This document shows positions 607 through 63,765 of a DNA stretch of 64,000 bases, one piece after another (the first letter of the stretch is position 1; each line of letters starts with the position of its first letter). The DNA lies in the sequence record MT129652.1; one strand, written 5' to 3'. The position numbers were made by a program, and so were the translations under genes. The notes below the pieces were generated by a model, which had not been told where the DNA came from, did not search any database, and saw only the letters and a list, made by a program, of their open reading frames with translations. This stretch comes from Escherichia phage MN01.

Positions 607-1635
607 ATGTCATATATTGATAAAGAATTTGCAGTCAGAGCTTTATCGTATCAACCACGTTATAGAGAAGTCACCGGGAGCACATTTAAGGCAAACTGTC
701 GTTGCAAGGTTTGCGGTGACTCTCAGAAAGATTCACACAAGGCCCGATTCTGGGCGTATACCAATCCGGCTGACGGTGCGGTTTACGTGAAATGTTTTAA
801 CTGTGACTACTCCACGCATATAAGCAAATACATAAAAGAGTTTGAGCCTGATTTACATCGGGAATATATGGTTGAGAAGTATAAGGAGAATGCCTTTGGC
901 AGACAACGTAATGAAGTTGCAGAAACTCCGAAAGAACCAGAAAAAACTCCGGTTATTGAGCAACTTGCTTTTTGCGAAAGAATCGATACTTTACCAGAAG
1001 CGCATCCGATAGTTAAGTATGTAAAAAGTCGGTGTATTCCGAGCAATGTTTGGAACCGGTTATGGTTTACAAACAAATGGCCTGCATTAGTTAACTCCGT
1101 TAATCCTGGGACGTATAAGAATGAAACGAATGAACCACGCTTGGTTATTCCTATCTTCAACGGCAAAAAAGAAATCGAATCTTTCCAAGGACGAGCTCTT
1201 CGCAAAGATGCACCACAAAAATATATCACAATCAAAGCCCACCCAGAAGCTTCCAAAGTCTATGGTGTAGACAAGATTGACGAACGCAAGCGCGTGTGGG
1301 TAATGGAAGGTCCGATTGATAGTTTGTTTATCCCTAACAGCATTGCGATAACCGGTGGAACATTAGCATTGGAAGCCGTTCCTTATGCAGAAACCCGAGT
1401 ATGGGTAATGGACAACGAGCCAAGACATCCTGATACGATTAAACGTATGAAGAAACTTGTTGAAGCCGGTGAAGCCGTTATGTTCTGGGACAATGCACCA
1501 TGGCATACGAAAGACATAAATGAGATGGTTAAATCAGAGGGTGCAACCCCTGAACAAATCGAATCATATATGGCCGATAACGTTACTCAAGGGCTGCTGG
1601 CGAGAATGCGACTTTCGAAGTACGCAAAAGTTTAG
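607..1635 (+). CDS. 61: DNA primase gp61
   Basis: 342 aa, same length as T4 gp61; N-terminal Cys-rich zinc-binding region (CRCKVCGD...CFNCDY) and overall similarity to T4 primase as I remember it. Confidence 0.9.
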   Translation: MSYIDKEFAVRALSYQPRYREVTGSTFKANCRCKVCGDSQKDSHKARFWAYTNPADGAVYVKCFNCDYSTHISKYIKEFEPDLHREYMVEKYKENAFGRQRNEVAETPKEPEKTPVIEQLAFCERIDTLPEAHPIVKYVKSRCIPSNVWNRLWFTNKWPALVNSVNPGTYKNETNEPRLVIPIFNGKKEIESFQGRALRKDAPQKYITIKAHPEASKVYGVDKIDERKRVWVMEGPIDSLFIPNSIAITGGTLALEAVPYAETRVWVMDNEPRHPDTIKRMKKLVEAGEAVMFWDNAPWHTKDINEMVKSEGATPEQIESYMADNVTQGLLARMRLSKYAKV

Positions 1636-1832
1636 GAAGGGATTCCGGTAAAGTAACCGATGATGGAATGGATATGTTCCATTGTGACCTGGGGTAAGTG
1701 TACCCCTTGTGATGCAGCGATAGGCACAACCAGTAAGTTCCACAGAAAAACATCAAGAGCTAAAAAGCCCATGATTAGTTTTTTGTCTTTCTTACTGGTT
1801 AATTTCCAAATCTGATAGAATAATGTTCCCAT
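1632..1832 (-). CDS. small membrane protein (66 aa)
   Basis: Minus-strand ORF with one hydrophobic helix; shares LWNxxVxPxA core with the adjacent minus-strand ORF. Confidence 0.35.
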   Translation of the reverse strand: MGTLFYQIWKLTSKKDKKLIMGFLALDVFLWNLLVVPIAASQGVHLPQVTMEHIHSIIGYFTGIPS

Positions 1833-1840
1833 AGTTCCAC

Positions 1841-2038
1841 CTATACAAGGCCGATTAATGCCAGTGAAACATCTACAACCGATTCGAGCGCGACGACTGG
1901 TAATATAATACCATATGTCAATGCAACAGGAGCAACAATGAAGTTCCAGAGTAGAACTGAACAGAGCACCGAAAGGACCAGAATCGTTCGCTTACGACTG
2001 CCTTTGATGGCTTGAATTAGACTAGATAGTTTTAGCAT
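1841..2038 (-). CDS. small membrane protein (65 aa), paralogue of 1632-1832
   Basis: Internal Met of ORF 1841-2068 preceded by strong AAGGAGGA Shine-Dalgarno and a CATAAATA late-promoter-like motif; two hydrophobic segments. Confidence 0.35.
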   Translation of the reverse strand: MLKLSSLIQAIKGSRKRTILVLSVLCSVLLWNFIVAPVALTYGIILPVVALESVVDVSLALIGLV

Positions 2039-2122
2039 ATATCCTCCTTTCTTGTATTTATGCTTCAAACCAATACGATATAATTAACATACAAATAACA
2101 TGAATTGATAAGGAAAAATATA

Positions 2123-2641
2123 ATGGCTCATTTTAACGAGTGTTCTCAACTGATTGCGGGTGTTGATAAAGCTGAAGAAGCTTATGACAATGCAATTATC
2201 GAAGGTACTGACCCGCTGCAGATTATGCTTGATATGCAGAAATCTTTGCAGGTCCGGTTGGCTACTGAAAAACCAGAATATAACTCACATCCAGATGAAT
2301 TGGCTACTGCAGGTGATGTTGTTACCTGGCTCCGCAACCAGAAAGATTATATTGATGATGAATTCCGCGAACTGATTACTGCATTAGGTGGCATGTCCAA
2401 TGGCGAGAAAGCTGCCTCGGCCGTATGGAAACCATGGAAAGCACAACATGGTGAAATGCAGCAAACCCTGATTAACGATTTGTCTCCTGAAGACCAGCTC
2501 GAAATTAAATTCGAAATGATTGATATCCTGCACTTTGTTCTGAACATGTTCCATGGTCTTGGTCTATCTGCAGAAGAAATCTTTAAACTGTATTACCTGA
2601 AAAACGCTGAGAACTTTGCTCGTCAGGACCGAGGTTATTAA
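2123..2641 (+). CDS. 56: dCTP pyrophosphatase (dCTPase-dUTPase) gp56
   Basis: Translation from MAHFNEC aligns along its length with T4 gp56 as remembered, including the conserved C-terminus EEIFKLYYLKNAENFARQDRGY; start moved to the internal Met matching the T4 N-terminus. Confidence 0.85.
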   Translation: MAHFNECSQLIAGVDKAEEAYDNAIIEGTDPLQIMLDMQKSLQVRLATEKPEYNSHPDELATAGDVVTWLRNQKDYIDDEFRELITALGGMSNGEKAASAVWKPWKAQHGEMQQTLINDLSPEDQLEIKFEMIDILHFVLNMFHGLGLSAEEIFKLYYLKNAENFARQDRGY

Positions 2642-2922
2642 TGGCTCGTTTAAATAAACGTCAGCTTAAGAAAGCTCGTAAGAAGCATATTAATGATATA
2701 ATTGAAAACGCTAATGTTGAAATCTTTGTAGAACTTTTAGCCAATCAACTAAAAAATTTATCTAAACAAGAAATTGCTATGAATACTGAAAATGCTAAAA
2801 ATGTAATCGAAACTCATAATGTTTTTGCCCAAGCTACTGCTGAATACATTGCTAATCCTACTGCTGAAAATCTAGCTAAAATGACCGAAGCCAATAAAGC
2901 AGTCCAAGCCGCCAAATTGTAA
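2641..2922 (+). CDS. hypothetical protein (93 aa)
   Basis: ORF in track, start overlaps gp56 stop (ATGA-type coupling). Confidence 0.4.
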   Translation: MARLNKRQLKKARKKHINDIIENANVEIFVELLANQLKNLSKQEIAMNTENAKNVIETHNVFAQATAEYIANPTAENLAKMTEANKAVQAAKL

Positions 2923-2924
2923 GT

Positions 2925-2932
2925 TATAAATA
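2925..2932 (+). promoter_or_regulatory. T4-type late promoter motif TATAAATA upstream of soc
   Basis: Exact TATAAATA about 30 nt upstream of the soc start, followed by AAAGGAGA Shine-Dalgarno. Confidence 0.6.
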
Positions 2933-2963
2933 CACCTGTAATTAAACATCAAAGGAGATAATT

Positions 2964-3197
2964 ATGGGTGGTTTCGTTAATATCAAAACCTTTACGCATG
3001 CAGCTGGTGAAGGTAAAGAAGTTAAAGGTACTGAGGTTTCAGTTCCATTTGAAATCTATTCTGATGCGCATCGTATTGCTAATGCTCATTATCAGACTTT
3101 CCCTTCGGCCGTTGCAGCCTATTCTACTGTAGTGACTGATGCTGCTGACTGGAAGACCAAGAATGAGGCAATGTTTACGCCGACCGATATTGTTTAA
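2964..3197 (+). CDS. soc: small outer capsid protein Soc
   Basis: 77 aa; motifs VNIKTF, YSDxHxIxxAHYQTFPS and AAYSTV match T4 Soc as remembered; late promoter and strong SD upstream, terminator downstream. Confidence 0.8.
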   Translation: MGGFVNIKTFTHAAGEGKEVKGTEVSVPFEIYSDAHRIANAHYQTFPSAVAAYSTVVTDAADWKTKNEAMFTPTDIV

Positions 3198-3202
3198 TTA
3201 TA

Positions 3203-3228
3203 GGGACTCTTCGGAGTCCCTTTTTGCT
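3203..3228 (+). terminator. rho-independent terminator (UUCG tetraloop hairpin + T-tract) after soc
   Basis: GGGACTC-TTCG-GAGTCCC followed by TTTTT. Confidence 0.6.
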
Positions 3229-3273
3229 TTTAATAGAAGCGGTATAATTATTTCAATTACAGAGGAGAATACT

Positions 3274-3471
3274 ATGTTAAACCGTTGGATTAAACCAAAT
3301 AAAGCTTTAGATGAAATTATTGCTCATGATGTCCATTTTAAGTATGGATTGGGTGTGTTTGATGAGGTTATCGTACATTCATTCATGATGCATGACGATG
3401 ACTCTTTAGAATTCAATATTGAAATCCGATGTGATGATGGTAAAGTTGAATTTAAACGAGGTTTCCTATGA
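3274..3471 (+). CDS. hypothetical protein (65 aa)
   Basis: Internal ATG of track ORF 3139-3471 preceded by AGAGGAGA SD and a TATAAT -10-like element. Confidence 0.35.
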   Translation: MLNRWIKPNKALDEIIAHDVHFKYGLGVFDEVIVHSFMMHDDDSLEFNIEIRCDDGKVEFKRGFL

Positions 3472-3809
3472 TTAGTTGGCTCAAGAATTTATTCAAGACT
3501 AAACCTGGTGAGGGTGTGGTTCCAGTTAACGTGCCAGATGTTAAGCTAAGAGAATATGTTTACATGGGCGACGGCATGATGGAAGAAGTGGTCAAATCGA
3601 AATCAAAAGACCTATATTCTACAATGTCAGAAGAAGACTTACAAAAACGTTTAACTCGACTGCAAGAACAAAGAGCTCAAGCGCAAAGCAGTATCGATAC
3701 TACTTCGATTGTGGTCACCGCTGCTGCAGTCAGTTCGTGGACCGGTGATTCGTCTTATTCCTCCTATGATTCGGGAAGCTGTGATTCGTCTTCCAGCTCG
3801 TGTGATTAA
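3468..3809 (+). CDS. hypothetical protein (113 aa) with Ser-rich C-terminal tail
   Basis: ORF in track; C-terminal 35 residues are mostly Ser/Asp/Tyr/Cys. Confidence 0.4.
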   Translation: MISWLKNLFKTKPGEGVVPVNVPDVKLREYVYMGDGMMEEVVKSKSKDLYSTMSEEDLQKRLTRLQEQRAQAQSSIDTTSIVVTAAAVSSWTGDSSYSSYDSGSCDSSSSSCD

Positions 3810-4004
3810 ATGAGAATTACAAGTTGGCTTAAAGATTGGTTGGTTACTCCAGGGATTGATGATTCCTGGGTGGCCAGAGCCGAGGAAGAAATGCAGCGCG
3901 AAGCCGAAGAATGGGCCGTTAACGGGCTTAAAGCCATGCAGGAAAAGAAGACCGAACGAGCAGCGCTTAAACTGATGCGTGATATCTACGGAGATAAATC
4001 ATGA
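3810..4004 (+). CDS. hypothetical protein (64 aa)
   Basis: ORF in track, abutting the previous stop. Confidence 0.3.
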
Positions 4005-4146
4005 CACAAGAAGACGCTGAACGCCGGGCAAAAGAAGCGCTGGATTTGCTTTTGAAAATTGGCAGTAAAATGATGGAAGAAAACGAAAAGTACATCAAGG
4101 AAAATAAAGTTCCTGATGGTCCATTAGTTGGTAAGAGGAAATCATT

Positions 4147-4635
4147 ATGAAAGTATATGAATTAGAATTCTATGTCCGTGATTCCGCTGGACAGACACGA
4201 CCTTACGATGCTACCGCATGCCTTATCATGGTTTACAATGGCATGGATTCGGTCACTGCATTGGAAACAAAATTAATGAACCTGACGATGCCAGAAAACG
4301 TTATGCTGAAAGTATTTCATAGAAAAAACGTTAATGTGGCCGAAGGGTGCCCGTTTACTGTTTCCGAAGCTCTGCACATCAAAGGCTATCGTTATCCGGA
4401 CCATTATGCAGAAGGAACCGCGGATATTTTCTATAAAGATACTGATAAAAATTCCAATGAACGTCTTCAGGGTCGCACTTATCTGATTTCTGCACCTGAA
4501 GACCTTACTGAAGTCGAACGTCAGATTTGGAAACACTTTGATATCGGCTTGCGCTTTACTTTAACAGAAGAAGCTCTGCGCGATACTAAAATGCGTGCTC
4601 GTATGTATGGTTACGGTCCTATCGGTGGTTACTAA
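4147..4635 (+). CDS. hypothetical protein (162 aa)
   Basis: ORF in track with AGGAAATCATT-ATG start context; lies in the soc-to-mod region (T4 mrh/srd neighbourhood), identity not established. Confidence 0.45.
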
Positions 4636-15653: not shown

Positions 15654-17888
15654 ATGATTTTAGAAACTGAAAAGGAAACAATCCTTGGTAATGGTGCCAA
15701 GGCATCAGCATTCACAATCCAGGCATCTCCAAAGGTGTTTAAGATTCTGACCAGCGACCTTTACACAAATAAGGTGCGTGCAGTTGTTCGTGAGCTGATT
15801 ACCAATATGATTGATGCTCATATGCTCAATGGCTGTCAGGATAAATTCATTGTCCAAGCTCCTGGTGAACTGGACCCACGTTTTGTGTGTCGTGACTTTG
15901 GTCCGGGTATGAGTGATTTCCAGATTCGTGGTGATGAAAATACTCCAGGTCTGTATAACAGTTTCTTTGCATCATCCAAGGCTGAATCCAATGATTTTAT
16001 TGGTGGCTTTGGTCTGGGTTCTAAATCTCCGTTCAGTTATACAGAGACGTTTAGCCTGATTTCGTATCATGATGGCCAAGTTAATGGTTATGTCGCTTAT
16101 ATGGATGGCGATGGTCCACAGATTAAGCCGACCTTTAGCGAACCAATGAAACCCGGTGACCGTACGGGGATTGAAGTTGTTGTCCCGGTTGATAGTAATG
16201 ATTTTGGTAAGTTCCGCCACGAGATTTCATATATCATGCGCCCATTTGCTGGACTGGCTGAAGTACAAGGCGTAGGCGAAATTAATTACTTCCCGGAATT
16301 TGATGATTATTATGCTCCAGAGCGTATTGATTATAGCAGCCCAGAACGTTATGGTCTTTATGCAATTTACGGTGGAATTGTTTATCCAATTGCCGACGGT
16401 TATACAAAGAAAACCTGGATGACCGCCAAAAATGATGTTGTCTTTATTAAGTTCCCGATGGGTTCGTTGGATATTGCACCTTCTCGCGAAGCATTATCAC
16501 TGGATAAACGTACGGTCGCAAATATCGTTGAACGTATTGAATCCCTTGATAAGAAAGTCATGGAAGATGATTGTAAGAAATGGCAGGAATCAGAATGTAT
16601 CCGCCACACGTATCGCGAATTACAGAGTCTGAGTTATGAAGCTCGTAATTTTCTGAAAGCTCGTAATGCTGAAACGAAATTTACGAAATCGCAATTGACC
16701 TTTAACCAGATGTATGAAATGTTCGAGCTGGACAAAGACCTTATTAATGCCGGGGTTGTCTATGATATCTATAGCACTACCCGTCTGAAACGTCTGCGTA
16801 ACTCAAGCTCGAACACGAATACTGCAAGCCTGACGAGCATGTTTGGTATTCAGAATAATACCTTGAACATTGTTATTGACGATGCTAAAGGGCGAATTGC
16901 GATGATTCGGGGCATCAGTTCAATGCTGTATGACACCAGCGCGAAAGCCAAAAAGCTCAAAGCATCTGGTAAAGTCCCGACTGTACAAGGTAGTAGTCTA
17001 TTGTTCGTTGACCCAACCAGCGAAATTCAAACACGTCTGATGGTTCAACTTCAAGAACGATTTAAAGGCGATACAGTTAATATCTATCGTACGTCTGAAC
17101 TGACCGCCCTTGTAAAAGACTGGATTCCGGTTGCTGACCCGAAAGCGCGCGTTAAGTCAAAGACTCCATCATTGATTCGTTGGACTAAAACTAATGGCAA
17201 ATGGCAGTCTGTTGAAGAATTTACATGTGCAGCTGATGCAGAGGAAATCGATGGTTATGCTGTATTCATTAACCGCAGTAGCATTTCCCCGTTGAATCAA
17301 GAATATGGCACCACGACCTTCGGGACCCAGACATTGTGTAAACTGGCAAACCTGTTGGAAATCAATGAATTCTGTGTTATTCGTCCACAGCTTCAGAAAA
17401 AGGTTACCAAGCTGGCGCAGTGTGATTGTTTGATTGAAGCTGCAGTCAATCGTTATGTGGAATTGATTGATTCAGTTGATGCGGACCAGTACATTGCCGC
17501 TTCAAGCCGTTCGCGTTATTATATTCCTATCCTGTCTGAATATGCGGAACTGAATTTTATGTTCAAGTATTTTTATGCAAAAGATGTTCAGAAAGATGTG
17601 AATACTGACTATGCCGAACTAATGCAGTTCAATAAGTTCTTTGCTTATAACGCATATAACAGTGGAACGGTTGATAAGACCATGCAGGAAACTCTGGTCC
17701 TTTGTAATAAGATTTATGACGACCTGACCAAAAACGCTTCGGTAACAAGTGATAAAATGGTTTTTGAATTTGAAAAGAATCACCCGATTGTTTCACACTT
17801 TTTATATAACCGTAACGCCATGTCAACTGAACAAGTACAGAACGTTGCTCAAATCATGAAGGCCGTGGAAGCGGCCAATAAGGAATAA
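15654..17888 (+). CDS. rIIA: rIIA (rapid-lysis / RexAB-exclusion protein, GHKL ATPase-like N-terminus)
   Basis: 744 aa (T4 725 aa); directly precedes rIIB; N-terminal ATPase-like motifs. Confidence 0.85.
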   Translation: MILETEKETILGNGAKASAFTIQASPKVFKILTSDLYTNKVRAVVRELITNMIDAHMLNGCQDKFIVQAPGELDPRFVCRDFGPGMSDFQIRGDENTPGLYNSFFASSKAESNDFIGGFGLGSKSPFSYTETFSLISYHDGQVNGYVAYMDGDGPQIKPTFSEPMKPGDRTGIEVVVPVDSNDFGKFRHEISYIMRPFAGLAEVQGVGEINYFPEFDDYYAPERIDYSSPERYGLYAIYGGIVYPIADGYTKKTWMTAKNDVVFIKFPMGSLDIAPSREALSLDKRTVANIVERIESLDKKVMEDDCKKWQESECIRHTYRELQSLSYEARNFLKARNAETKFTKSQLTFNQMYEMFELDKDLINAGVVYDIYSTTRLKRLRNSSSNTNTASLTSMFGIQNNTLNIVIDDAKGRIAMIRGISSMLYDTSAKAKKLKASGKVPTVQGSSLLFVDPTSEIQTRLMVQLQERFKGDTVNIYRTSELTALVKDWIPVADPKARVKSKTPSLIRWTKTNGKWQSVEEFTCAADAEEIDGYAVFINRSSISPLNQEYGTTTFGTQTLCKLANLLEINEFCVIRPQLQKKVTKLAQCDCLIEAAVNRYVELIDSVDADQYIAASSRSRYYIPILSEYAELNFMFKYFYAKDVQKDVNTDYAELMQFNKFFAYNAYNSGTVDKTMQETLVLCNKIYDDLTKNASVTSDKMVFEFEKNHPIVSHFLYNRNAMSTEQVQNVAQIMKAVEAANKE

Positions 17889-17889
17889 T

Positions 17890-18867
17890 ATGTTTAATAT
17901 CAAATGTATGTCTAAAGCCGAACAAGCTGATGTGGTCCAGATGTATTCAACGGGCAATTATACCCAGCCTGAATTGGCAGAATATTTTGCTGTGTCCGTT
18001 GACACCATTCGCCGCGTTTTGAAAAATGATAAAGAATCAAAATTAGCTAGAACCATTTCCGCATCACTGAAAGCAGCTGTTGGTGTGGCGATTAATGCTC
18101 CGGTGACAGTAACGGTTGAAGTCCCGGTTGCTGATACAATCGGCGGTAGCCGCCCGGAAATCGTATGGAACGCATCAAGCAAATTCGTTTCCATCACCGA
18201 AGGCCGCACGGTCTGGAACGCAACAAAAGACCATAAACACTTTGATGATATTATTCAGGCATTGATTGAATTCCGGTATGAAGATGCTATCGAGTTTATC
18301 TCTATCAAAGCTGCAGTGCAAAAATATGTGAAAGGTGATGTGCGTATTGAAGGTGGTAGCCTGTTCTATCAGGGAATTGAACTGCGCTCTGGTTTGGTTA
18401 CTCGTATCATCGATTCAATGCAAAATGGCGAAGACTTTGAATTCTATCTGCCATTCCTTGAAAATCTCCTTGAGAACCCGAGTGAGAAAGCTGTACAGCG
18501 TTTGTTTGACTTCTTGGTTGCTAACGATATCGAAATCACCGAAGATGGCCATTTCATCGCCTGGAAAATGGTTCGTTCAACCTACAAAGATTGCCACTCA
18601 AATACATTCGACAACAGCCCTGGTCAATATGTTAAAATGCCGCGCTCTCGTGTGAATGACAATGACGAACAGACCTGTTCAACTGGGCTGCACGTTTGTT
18701 CTAAAGGTTATATCGGAAGTGGCTTTGGTCATGGTGATGGGCGCATCGTATCCTGTAAAGTTCACCCGCGCGATGTTGTAAGCATCCCGGTGGATTATTC
18801 CGATAGTAAGATGAGGGTTTGCGGTTACCTGGTTCTTGAAGATGTGACCGAACGTTTCAATGATTAA
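17890..18867 (+). CDS. rIIB: rIIB
   Basis: 325 aa (T4 312 aa); immediately follows rIIA with a 1-nt gap. Confidence 0.85.
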   Translation: MFNIKCMSKAEQADVVQMYSTGNYTQPELAEYFAVSVDTIRRVLKNDKESKLARTISASLKAAVGVAINAPVTVTVEVPVADTIGGSRPEIVWNASSKFVSITEGRTVWNATKDHKHFDDIIQALIEFRYEDAIEFISIKAAVQKYVKGDVRIEGGSLFYQGIELRSGLVTRIIDSMQNGEDFEFYLPFLENLLENPSEKAVQRLFDFLVANDIEITEDGHFIAWKMVRSTYKDCHSNTFDNSPGQYVKMPRSRVNDNDEQTCSTGLHVCSKGYIGSGFGHGDGRIVSCKVHPRDVVSIPVDYSDSKMRVCGYLVLEDVTERFND

Positions 18868-19351
18868 ACAAACAATTGCTAAAGATGGCTCGGCTCGTGG
18901 TATTGTCCACGGGCTAGGTCACACGCCTGAATACATTGTATGGATTGGCATGAAAGCTCGGTGTTGCAATCCAACACATATTAGTTATTCTCGATATGGC
19001 GGTCGGGGTATCACTGTTTGCGATGAATGGCTGCATGATTTTGAAAGATTTTATACAGATATGGGGCCACGACCCACTGACAAACATCAACTTGACCGAA
19101 CAGATAACGATAAAGGGTACTCTCCCGATAACTGCAGATGGGTTAGTCCAGGCGAGAATGCTTTAAATAAGCGCCCGTATAATAACAACAAGTCTGGATT
19201 TAAAGGAGTCTCGTTTGATAAACGAGCTTTGAATAAACCATGGCGAGCCACTATTATGCGAAATAAAAAACAAATTCAAGTCGGAGCTTTTGCAACTCCA
19301 GAAGAAGCAAATGAAGCTCGATTAAAATATATGGAAGAACACAATGTCTAA
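18860..19351 (+). CDS. HNH-family (HNH_3-like) endonuclease with C-terminal AP2 DNA-binding domain
   Basis: 163 aa; EYIVWIGMKARCCNP...GGRGI.VCDEW N-terminal block, LDRTDNDKGYSPDNCRWVSPGENALNKR HNH-like core, GFKGVSFDKRALNKPWRATIMRNKKQIQVGAFATPEEA AP2 motif; start overlaps the rIIB stop. Confidence 0.7.
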   Translation: MIKQTIAKDGSARGIVHGLGHTPEYIVWIGMKARCCNPTHISYSRYGGRGITVCDEWLHDFERFYTDMGPRPTDKHQLDRTDNDKGYSPDNCRWVSPGENALNKRPYNNNKSGFKGVSFDKRALNKPWRATIMRNKKQIQVGAFATPEEANEARLKYMEEHNV

Positions 19352-19553
19352 AGAAATGTTAGGTTTCCAAGCACGTGTAGTTGAAGAATATGACCAGCTG
19401 GTTTTGAAAATCAATGCTCTTGAAGAGTTTATCAAGGGTGGAGTTTTTGAAACTCTTGATATCCGTCAACAAGGTCTTTTGATTGCCCAACTGGATGCGA
19501 TGGGCGCATATGCTCATGTACTGGCAATCCGTATCTCTTATTTTGGTGAATAA
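19344..19553 (+). CDS. hypothetical protein (69 aa)
   Basis: ORF in track, start overlaps previous stop. Confidence 0.35.
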   Translation: MSKEMLGFQARVVEEYDQLVLKINALEEFIKGGVFETLDIRQQGLLIAQLDAMGAYAHVLAIRISYFGE

Positions 19554-19556
19554 ATT

Positions 19557-19826
19557 ATGATTAAGCATTTCAATGTGTCAGACCGTGACATCAAAGTTTC
19601 AAATCTCCGGGGTCACCATTATGCAGGAATAGTTTACTGTGGTAAGCTCATCAAGCATGAAGGTGATGTTCACTATGGCTGGTTGGAATGTGATGAAGTA
19701 GTTGTTGGGGAATTCCCTGACCCGGATTCTGATACATTTGATGCTAATGACCGTTTGTACTATGGCGAGCTTCATATCCGGGGAATCGTCGGTATCGATG
19801 AGGTAAAAGATGATTCAGAAGAGTAA
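19557..19826 (+). CDS. hypothetical protein (89 aa)
   Basis: ORF in track. Confidence 0.35.
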   Translation: MIKHFNVSDRDIKVSNLRGHHYAGIVYCGKLIKHEGDVHYGWLECDEVVVGEFPDPDSDTFDANDRLYYGELHIRGIVGIDEVKDDSEE

Positions 19827-20448: not shown

Positions 20449-20726
20449 TCATGGAACAAGTTACTACTCAAAACATCAAACAAATTCTTATTCAAGCACT
20501 CAAAAACAACAACATCAATTTTCCAACCCATGAAATTTTTGATGTGGTATTCAACGAAGTCCAGGGTCAAGTTGCATATTATGACGTTATCATTTATCTT
20601 TCAGAATTTGAAGTCTACCACCTGACTGAAATCGCTTTCTATCTCTATCGTGGGACTGCAGATTTTACCGGGGTCGTGAATGCAGTTGGTGCATATAAAG
20701 AAGTTAAAGAACAAATGCACAATTAA
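20449..20726 (+). CDS. hypothetical protein (92 aa)
   Basis: Internal ATG of track ORF 20361-20726 preceded by GAGGA SD. Confidence 0.35.
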
Positions 20727-29207: not shown

Positions 29208-29221
29208 GGGGCCGAAGCCCC
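29208..29221 (-). other. stem-loop (GGGGC-UUCG-GCCCC) in the 37-38 intergenic spacer
   Basis: Perfect 5-bp stem with UUCG tetraloop on the minus-strand transcript, just upstream of the gp38 SD. Confidence 0.5.
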
Positions 29222-49519: not shown

Positions 49520-49541
49520 AAAGGGCTTCGGCCCTTTTTGT
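49520..49541 (+). terminator. rho-independent terminator after nrdB (GGGC-TTCG-GCCC + T-tract)
   Basis: UUCG tetraloop hairpin followed by TTTTT. Confidence 0.55.
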
Positions 49542-59923: not shown

Positions 59924-59961
59924 TCTTAAATGGGGGCGAAAGCCCCCTTGAGGAAAATACT

Positions 59962-63742: not shown

Positions 63743-63765
63743 AAGGGGCTTCGGCCCTTTTTTAG
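63743..63765 (+). terminator. rho-independent terminator after ligase (GGGC-TTCG-GCCC + T-tract)
   Basis: UUCG tetraloop hairpin followed by TTTTT. Confidence 0.55.

Follow-up and report, generated by a model that had tools for sequence, protein, structure and literature searches.

Among the closest described systems to the gene considered here are the HNH(HNN)-AP2 homing endonucleases, in which an N-terminal His-Me finger domain with an I-HmuI-like core is followed by an AP2 domain (Magnani et al. 2004; RB49/RB43 and Xp10 family: PMC1524935, PMC2248197). They are encoded by freestanding genes of sporadic occurrence in phages, including T4-like phages, in which HNH-AP2 mobile genes have been noted since 2004-2006 (PMC1524935). 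We have analyzed a gene of similar layout in Escherichia phage MN01 (MT129652.1), within a 64,000-nucleotide (nt) stretch of that record that we call the window; this open reading frame (ORF) lies directly behind rIIB and is referred to below as HEG, for homing-endonuclease-type gene. Its protein shares with the HNH(HNN)-AP2 enzymes the order of domains and a motif that aligns to I-HmuI D74/H75/N87/N96, but those enzymes keep an Asp-His pair, whereas the HEG family has Asp-Arg and a tyrosine in a loop. We consider it likely that HEG is a freestanding homing-endonuclease gene that recently invaded the rIIB-denB.1 junction of some Gapriverviruses, and that it encodes a PacI-type nuclease domain joined to AP2.

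The comparison with PacI is central to this proposal. PacI, an active restriction enzyme (PDB 3LDY/3M7K), forms part of 'group 20' of the His-Me finger classification (PMC5714182) and works without a catalytic histidine, the role of which is taken over by a tyrosine in the inter-strand loop (PMC5714182, PMC4081073, PMC3384342). Its catalytic residues have been given as 'H, DR, CxxCN', with the tyrosine following DR (PMC11529989). The two proteins have in common the core motif register D-R-x-D-x4-G-Y-S-P-x-N-x-R, the replacement of histidine, and the position of the tyrosine after DR in the loop. PacI is otherwise a restriction enzyme of 142 amino acids (aa) that forms a homodimer, has a pair of Cys4 zinc sites and is without AP2, whereas the HEG protein differs in its N-terminal elaboration (RC...YGGRGI..C..W..F), has no more than one Cys3His-like site and ends in an AP2 domain. 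HEG, moreover, behaves as a mobile gene, and no similarity between the two proteins was detected outside the motif.

A different set of relatives is provided by the IPA-HNH homing-endonuclease genes of Vibrio phage ICP1 (gp59, gp115/116 and gp209), which combine an HNH-like domain too divergent for Pfam HNH_3 with a C-terminal AP2 domain (Barth et al. 2023, PMC10448857). These genes are freestanding, lie at boundaries of genetic exchange and are stated to be absent from T4, and a rIIB-linked lineage is not described in that paper (PMC10448857). The HEG protein likewise combines the absence of HNH_3 with an AP2 domain and homology to gp59; BLASTP against gp59 aligned 115 aa (HEG aa 27-132) with 27% identity and an E of 3e-6. 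At the position of Arg80, however, gp59 has a lysine (QLDKD), and it is without the YGGRGI box. We therefore regard HEG as a sister lineage of IPA-HNH and not as a member of the same subfamily.

'Hidden' out-of-frame HNH elements have been described in mycobacteriophage methylase genes, and for one of them, Pacc40, the authors obtained matches with PacI and BLAST hits named 'AP2 domain-containing protein' (Arsenault et al. 2025, PMC11855218). Those elements are insertions inside a coding sequence, in another frame, whereas HEG is a normal freestanding ORF; the copy of the HEG family found in a Jerseyvirus DNA polymerase gene, described below, is arranged as they are. With the freestanding mob and seg genes of T4, HEG shares intergenic insertion between conserved genes, presence or absence among close relatives, co-conversion of flanking markers and, probably, tightly limited expression. 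The mob genes are canonical HNH endonuclease genes and the seg genes belong to the GIY-YIG class. To our knowledge, none of them lies between rIIB and denB.1 in T4, and none has a DR...Y core or an AP2 domain.

As a gene, HEG is ordinary in kind. Its protein is already in GenBank, and RefSeq names the VR7 counterpart, VR7ORF292c, 'HNH endonuclease'. What the present analysis adds is a residue-level mapping of an abundant, unmodelled family onto the Asp-Arg/Tyr/Asn site of PacI, together with a clean natural example of the family's recent spread.

The active-site motif

The residues LDRTDND, aa 78-84 of the HEG protein, read where an HNH core normally holds its general-base histidine, an observation of the first-pass annotation of this locus that our alignments bear out. 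With the sequence of I-HmuI confirmed against the SPO1 record, the family profile placed Asp79 on Asp74, Arg80 on the general base His75, Asn91 on Asn87 and Asn100 on Asn96. The two antiparallel strands and the following helix that form the metal site of a His-Me finger are present, and so are the metal ligands, with D79 equivalent to I-HmuI D74 and PacI D92, and N100 to I-HmuI N96 and, in a register extended by hand, to PacI N113. What differs is the end of strand 1, where Arg80 occupies the position of the histidine general base. No intact catalytic histidine was found elsewhere in the motif; its replacement is a tyrosine. The core is thus atypical, as that annotation had also allowed, in that the canonical histidine has given way to a conserved arginine.

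For the comparison with PacI, the enzyme's sequence was confirmed against PDB 3LDY and the roles of its residues were taken from secondary sources (PMC5714182, PMC4081073, PMC11529989). A gap-free alignment sets HEG protein 78-LDRTDNDKGYSPDNCRW-94 against PacI 91-VDRSDSFEGYSPQNARL-107, with 9 of 17 residues identical. Aspartate, arginine, tyrosine and asparagine are among them, the pairs (HEG/PacI) being D79/D92, R80/R93, Y87/Y100 and N91/N104. Asn100 falls on PacI Asn113, the asparagine of the CxxCN box, when the register is extended by hand beyond the reported alignment, which ends near PacI 109. An Asp-Arg pair ending strand 1, a loop tyrosine in place of histidine and a helix asparagine, the features that we looked for in a PacI-like site, are all found in the HEG protein, and the short motif match agrees with an independent structural match to the PacI fold. 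Judged by these residues, what had seemed a non-canonical core appears to be a PacI-type core, one that is catalytically active in PacI.

Conservation across the family supports a functional reading of the motif. Among the 120 closest homologues and the query, R34, C35, G47, G48, R49, W57, F64, R80, Y87, N91, W94 and N103 are invariant (121/121), and position 79 is Asp or Glu in 119 of the 121, giving a family motif of D79-R80-x6-Y87-x3-N91-x8-N100-x2-N103. A second, broader set comprised 313 domain copies drawn from the 150 best representatives. Here Asn91 (312 copies), Trp94 (309) and Arg80 (303) are nearly constant, Tyr87 is kept in 289 and replaced by Phe in 22, and Asp/Glu79, Gln/Asn100 and Asn103 are found in 256, 260 and 257 copies, respectively. 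In 22 of the 24 cases in which Tyr87 had been lost (to Phe), Asp79 or Asn103 was missing as well (Fisher p 6e-13, which is not a true probability because the sequences are related). Such joint loss is expected if Asp79, Tyr87 and the helix asparagine cooperate, with Arg80, Asn91 and Trp94 also serving the fold or DNA contact. An arginine and a tyrosine in place of histidine are probably a conserved, working active-site design that the family has in common with PacI. The suggestion that the gene is degenerate is not supported, since the family as a whole keeps Arg80 and the entire motif, which matches that of an active enzyme; the degenerate copy is a frameshifted one in phage 212, discussed below. 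More generally, in this family a missing catalytic histidine should not be taken to mean a dead nuclease, the Asp-Arg...Tyr...Asn motif being that of active PacI.

Domain makeup and family of the HEG protein

The C-terminal AP2 domain scores below the Pfam threshold when the single sequence is used (E 2e-4), while a profile built from 101 family members matches solved plant AP2 domains with E values of 8e-10 and 5e-6; the three-stranded sheet packed on a C-terminal helix that characterizes AP2/ERF domains (PF00847) is also present. The N-terminal 105 residues are matched by no Pfam or NCBIfam model, and HNH_3 (PF13392) is absent even at E<=1. The same model fails to match the relatives P0122 and P0030 and the Jerseyvirus ORF, and the 60-aa region that precedes the motif is unrelated to that of HNH_3-type enzymes. 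Of the HNH_3-plus-AP2 architecture originally assigned to this gene, an HNH-like domain followed by AP2 is retained, and membership in Pfam HNH_3 is not. We call the domain HNH-like because of its matches to PHROG families, the alignment of the family profile to the HNH motif of I-HmuI, and the match to the PacI fold. The PHROG matches are to 'HNH endonuclease' families 374/953/3377 (E 8e-59 to 2e-41, with PHROG 374 the best). PHROGs 99, 4578 and 3593, which carry the same name and which may be of the canonical HNH-AP2 type, match only aa ~74/88-161, that is, the strand-2/helix part and AP2. Searching PDB sequences with the single HEG protein returned chance matches only (NEDD4, SusG), and a PDB-wide profile search gave a short match of the strand-1/loop region to 9ome, a 'lipoprotein' (E 0.016). 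The AlphaFold2 model of the protein has a mean predicted local distance difference test (pLDDT) score of 90.6. Kinship to the CapR-AP2 'CasPR' repressors was considered and rejected, since their spacing (CapR Cys 33-58, AP2 Arg 138/149), judged from the paper's description only, leaves no room for a 95-aa HNH-like domain.

The N-terminal domain is widespread. With this domain alone as the query, a scan of 1.84 billion cluster representatives found 111,408 50%-identity clusters at E<=1e-3 and 81,756 at E<=1e-10. The HEG protein, which is small and well modelled, would offer the first biochemical anchor for more than 100,000 clusters that standard domain databases leave unmodelled. The best relatives (P0121-P0270; e.g., P0122, P0125, P0141, P0147 and P0159) contain two to four tandem copies of the domain, which no Pfam model covers in these proteins either. 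A frequent arrangement is an intact copy (D-R…Y…N…N) beside one that is without Asp79, Tyr87 and the helix asparagine but retains Arg80, Asn91 and Trp94. Proteins of this kind may represent pseudo-dimers within a single chain, or else series of DNA-binding modules.

The tandem relatives are among the observations that favor a different account, in which the N-terminal domain, like SMAD MH1, derives from HNH and is catalytically dead. The HEG protein would then be a sequence-specific binder composed of an HNH-like domain and AP2, for example one that represses or obstructs genes of the phage or the host in the manner of the AP2-containing CasPR anti-CRISPR repressors, and its patchy distribution would come from ordinary recombination. 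The canonical general-base histidine is indeed absent, the His-Me classification counts groups without both histidine and tyrosine as inactive DNA or substrate binders (PMC5714182), and phage AP2 proteins can be pure repressors (bioRxiv 10.64898/2026.02.23.707548). That degenerate copies retain Arg80, Asn91 and Trp94 and lose Asp79 and Tyr87 implies that part of the motif is structural or DNA-binding. We nevertheless consider this account unlikely. Asp79, Tyr87, Asn100 and Asn103, the equivalents of the PacI metal ligands and tyrosine, would be superfluous in a pure binder, yet they are near-invariant and are lost together; the motif is that of an active enzyme; and the locus carries the hallmarks of homing described in the next section.

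Several further points weigh against a PacI-type nuclease and should be set beside the evidence for it. The sequence match to PacI is short (19-21 residues) and, taken alone, weak (~7 bits in a one-to-one comparison), and PDB-wide profile searches, run with each of two family alignments, did not recover PacI. The two Cys4 zinc sites of PacI are not matched: the family has only C35, C54 and C92 with H76 (or H17), imperfectly conserved, and the pattern CCHC is found in 118 of the 313 copies, C92 being Val in 68. The literature that we searched contains no demonstration of DNA cleavage by a family member with the YGGRGI...DR...Y motif. Finally, tandem copies of a domain are more typical of DNA-binding modules, and are also compatible with single-chain pseudo-dimers of a normally dimerising nuclease. 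We speculate, tentatively, that the family is a distinct His-Me class with an Arg-Tyr pair, of mainly phage-borne homing endonucleases from which PacI is a rare restriction-enzyme offshoot, or, which would be more surprising, that it is mainly a DNA-reading module, as the tandem arrays suggest, spread by other nucleases.

Insertion and spread at the rIIB-denB.1 junction

MN01 is a T4-type coliphage of the genus Gaprivervirus (VR7/SP18 group), and its rIIB-to-denB region is 94-96% identical to those of phages DCP80, TH54, 212 and VR7. HEG is present in VR7, DCP80 and TH54 and frameshifted in phage 212, whereas UPEC01, CJ20, P479, SP18, YenP8, M719 and others lack it and have a clean empty site. 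Comparison of the rIIB-denB interval across T4-like phages thus shows that HEG is an insertion and not a conserved core gene, in agreement with the first-pass annotation. The empty-site phages have in its place a 33-nt spacer containing a hairpin, GGGGCTTCGGCCCC, and a Shine-Dalgarno sequence for denB.1, the junction in non-carriers such as UPEC01 or SP18 reading CTTGATGATGTAACTGAACAATTTTAAATTAATCGGGGCTTCGGCCCCTAATGAGGCTTTATG. The right boundary of the insertion is exactly the denB.1 ATG. On the left, the carriers have their own version of the rIIB 3′ end, with fixed carrier/non-carrier differences at 18846 and 18849, so that it differs from the presumed target site.

The unit that has moved is larger than the gene. 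A cassette of HEG with co-conversion tracts on both sides (Table 1) is 99.0-100% identical among the window, VR7, DCP80 and TH54, against 92.6-96.5% for the adjacent 600-bp flanks, and the nearest mismatches outside it are at 18783 and at 19389/19397/19412. The HEG protein itself is 100% identical to the DCP80 and TH54 copies and 98.8% identical to VR7ORF292c. In its 5′ region, rIIB of the window has 0 mismatches per 100 nt to non-carriers and is 30-39% different from other carriers; the same cassette therefore sits on different backbones. The copy in phage 212 has a 2-nt insertion that shifts the frame and 21 substitutions. In Morganella phage MP1, which belongs to another genus (Gualtarvirus) and has a rIIB gene only 59% identical, a 70%-identical gene occupies the same rIIB junction and is followed by denB. 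An intergenic insertion with a clean empty site, a cassette more alike than its backbone and a degenerating copy are what is expected of a freestanding homing-endonuclease gene. Such genes are classically recognized by the combination seen here, namely invasion, co-conversion, decay and recurrence at a single site, and the contrast between cassette and flanks, with the decaying copy, supports the description of HEG as selfish. The same hallmarks speak against the dead-binder account, as the 605-bp cassette is 99-100% identical on backbones that differ by 4-7%, and as the family has reached both the same site in a second genus and an intein-like insertion in a Jerseyvirus.

This Jerseyvirus insertion lies within a DNA polymerase gene (L006, Salmonella phage vB_SenS_Psm147), where an intact family member is read in another frame than the polymerase. 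The ORF (2587..3330, 247 aa, within the polymerase coding sequence 1154..4252) carries the motifs …YGARGITVF…MDRIDTDGNYEPGNIRF…SENCRN; in the translation of the polymerase frame, CLHRH… opens the insertion and …VAHNC closes it, with no stop codons. By tblastn, several further Salmonella phages and APSE-4 also have the domain (aa 33-105; 7-105 in APSE-4) under their DNA polymerase genes.

Occurrence at one position in both Gaprivervirus and Gualtarvirus could instead mean that HEG is an accessory gene of the ancestral Straboviridae rIIB-denB region, inherited vertically and often lost, which serves the phage, for example in host-DNA degradation with DenB or by excluding competitor phages. The gene does lie among nuclease and host-shutoff genes (denB, ndd) and is presumably co-translated with an early gene. 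Vertical descent predicts, however, that HEG should have diverged as its flanks have, and it has not: identities of 99-100% give way to 93-96% at sharp boundaries (18783 and ~19389), the backbone of the window groups with non-carriers, and between the two genera HEG (70%) is more conserved than rIIB (59%). One deposited and otherwise viable genome, that of phage 212, also has the gene in frameshifted form. We find vertical inheritance improbable, and still less probable than a dead binder. Least probable of all, and very much so, is an anti-phage or anti-defence acquisition, which the first-pass annotation had raised as a possible origin. It would draw on context only, the rII locus being tied to exclusion phenomena and nucleases being common in conflict systems; no PADLOC model matches the HEG protein or three of its neighbors, no partner genes arrived with it and the cassette consists of a single ORF. 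The defence-related reading is accordingly dropped.

We return to a homing endonuclease as the explanation that we favor, for which the following course of events can be proposed. The HEG protein would be made at a low level, by reinitiation after translation of rIIB. Its AP2 domain, providing site recognition, and its nuclease domain would bind the empty-site allele, composed of the rIIB 3′ end and the 33-nt hairpin spacer. Asp79 and Asn100, with Asn103, may hold a single Mg2+; the invariant Tyr87, in the loop between the strands, may activate or provide the nucleophile, as in PacI; and Arg80 may touch the scissile phosphate or reduce the pKa of that tyrosine. When a carrier genome is present in the same cell, a nick or break at the empty site would be repaired from it, and the repair would copy HEG along with ~76 bp to its left and ~37 bp to its right. 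Carrier genomes would be protected because their site is split and its left half altered. From the comparisons given here we infer nuclease activity, the part played by each residue, the site that is targeted and the coupling of HEG translation to that of rIIB. For annotation, HEG is an intact, recently mobile gene of homing-endonuclease type and not a broken one, and the rIIB-denB.1 junction is a recombination hotspot of Gapriverviruses.

The hairpin of the empty site recurs in the window. Exact copies of GGGGCTTCGGCCCC or copies with 1-2 mismatches are found at 29208..29221 (-), 63745..63758 (+), 49522..49535 (+) and 59933..59946 (-), four matches against 0.11 expected. This GC-rich UUCG-type element is probably a generic intergenic stem-loop of these phages. 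The spacer hairpin alone was rejected as the target of HEG on the ground of this recurrence (e.g., at 29208 and 63745); it is not the sole determinant of the target.

Gene order and features of the locus

The genes of the region follow one another as rIIA, rIIB, HEG, a homologue of denB.1, a DUF7418 gene and denB (PHROG 1360), which agrees with the earlier description of the interval as leading into denB. Coordinates are collected in Table 1.

Table 1. Features of the HEG locus (positions are those of the window)
Feature	Position	Strand	Description
rIIA	15654..17888		
rIIB	17890..18867	+	upstream host gene; PHROG 609 'RIIB lysis inhibitor', E 8e-103
Mobile cassette	18784..19388	.	~605 bp: HEG between two co-conversion tracts, ~76 bp from the rIIB 3′ end and ~37 bp from the denB.1 5′ end
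Carrier-specific rIIB 3′ end	18838..18867	+	..EDVTERFND(stop), vs ..DDVTEQF(stop) in empty-site phages; last eight codons diverged
rIIB/HEG overlap	18860..18867	+	8 nt, ATGATTAA; HEG start codon with rIIB stop codon
HEG	18860..19351	+	163 aa, ATG start; likely freestanding homing-endonuclease-type gene, putative PacI-type HNH-like domain and AP2
N-terminal domain (aa 17-105)	18908..19174	+	conserved R34, C35, YGGRGI 46-51, C54, W57, F64
Beta-beta-alpha-metal core (aa 77-103)	19088..19168	+	D79 R80 ... Y87 ... N91 C92 R93 W94 ... N100 ... N103
AP2 DNA-binding domain (aa 112-161)	19193..19342	+	C-terminal third of the HEG protein
denB.1 homologue	19344..19553	+	PF21825 'crAss001_48 related protein', E 7e-19

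HEG was first described as starting inside the rIIB stop codon. The two genes do overlap, but the HEG ATG (18860-18862) lies 2 nt upstream of the rIIB TAA (18865-18867) and not within it. This start is annotated identically in VR7 and DCP80, and Morganella phage MP1 has an equivalent overlap of rIIB stop and HEG start, TGATG. The sequence upstream of HEG contains no Shine-Dalgarno sequence and no convincing promoter of its own, and a search for a terminator likewise gave nothing convincing. Translation of HEG is presumed, from the ATGATTAA overlap, to be coupled to that of rIIB. At the other end of the gene, carriers have an extra upstream ATG for denB.1 (19344) that overlaps the HEG stop (ATGTCTAA), the ATG common to carriers and empty-site phages being at 19359. 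In carriers, denB.1 may therefore start 15 nt further upstream, at the overlapping ATG. No paralogues of HEG were found in the window.

Other parts of the region also vary among these phages. The first 300 nt of rIIB (17890..18190), encoding a helix-turn-helix-like N-terminus, are mosaic: they are identical to those of UPEC01, YenP8 and M719 and 30-39% different from those of VR7, DCP80, TH54, 212, CJ20, P479 and SP18, the remainder of rIIB differing by 3-10% from all. Between denB.1 and denB, the position of the DUF7418 gene (19557..19826) is taken in YenP8 and M719 by an unrelated-looking 321-nt ORF (~53% alignment mismatches), and by this comparison the segment appears to be a second exchange point in the rIIB-denB interval. 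Directly after denB lies a 91-aa ORF (20451..20726, +). It has no significant Pfam or PADLOC match, and its VR7 counterpart, VR7ORF288c, is annotated as 'similar to Staphylococcus phage G1 ORF058 putative HNH nuclease'.

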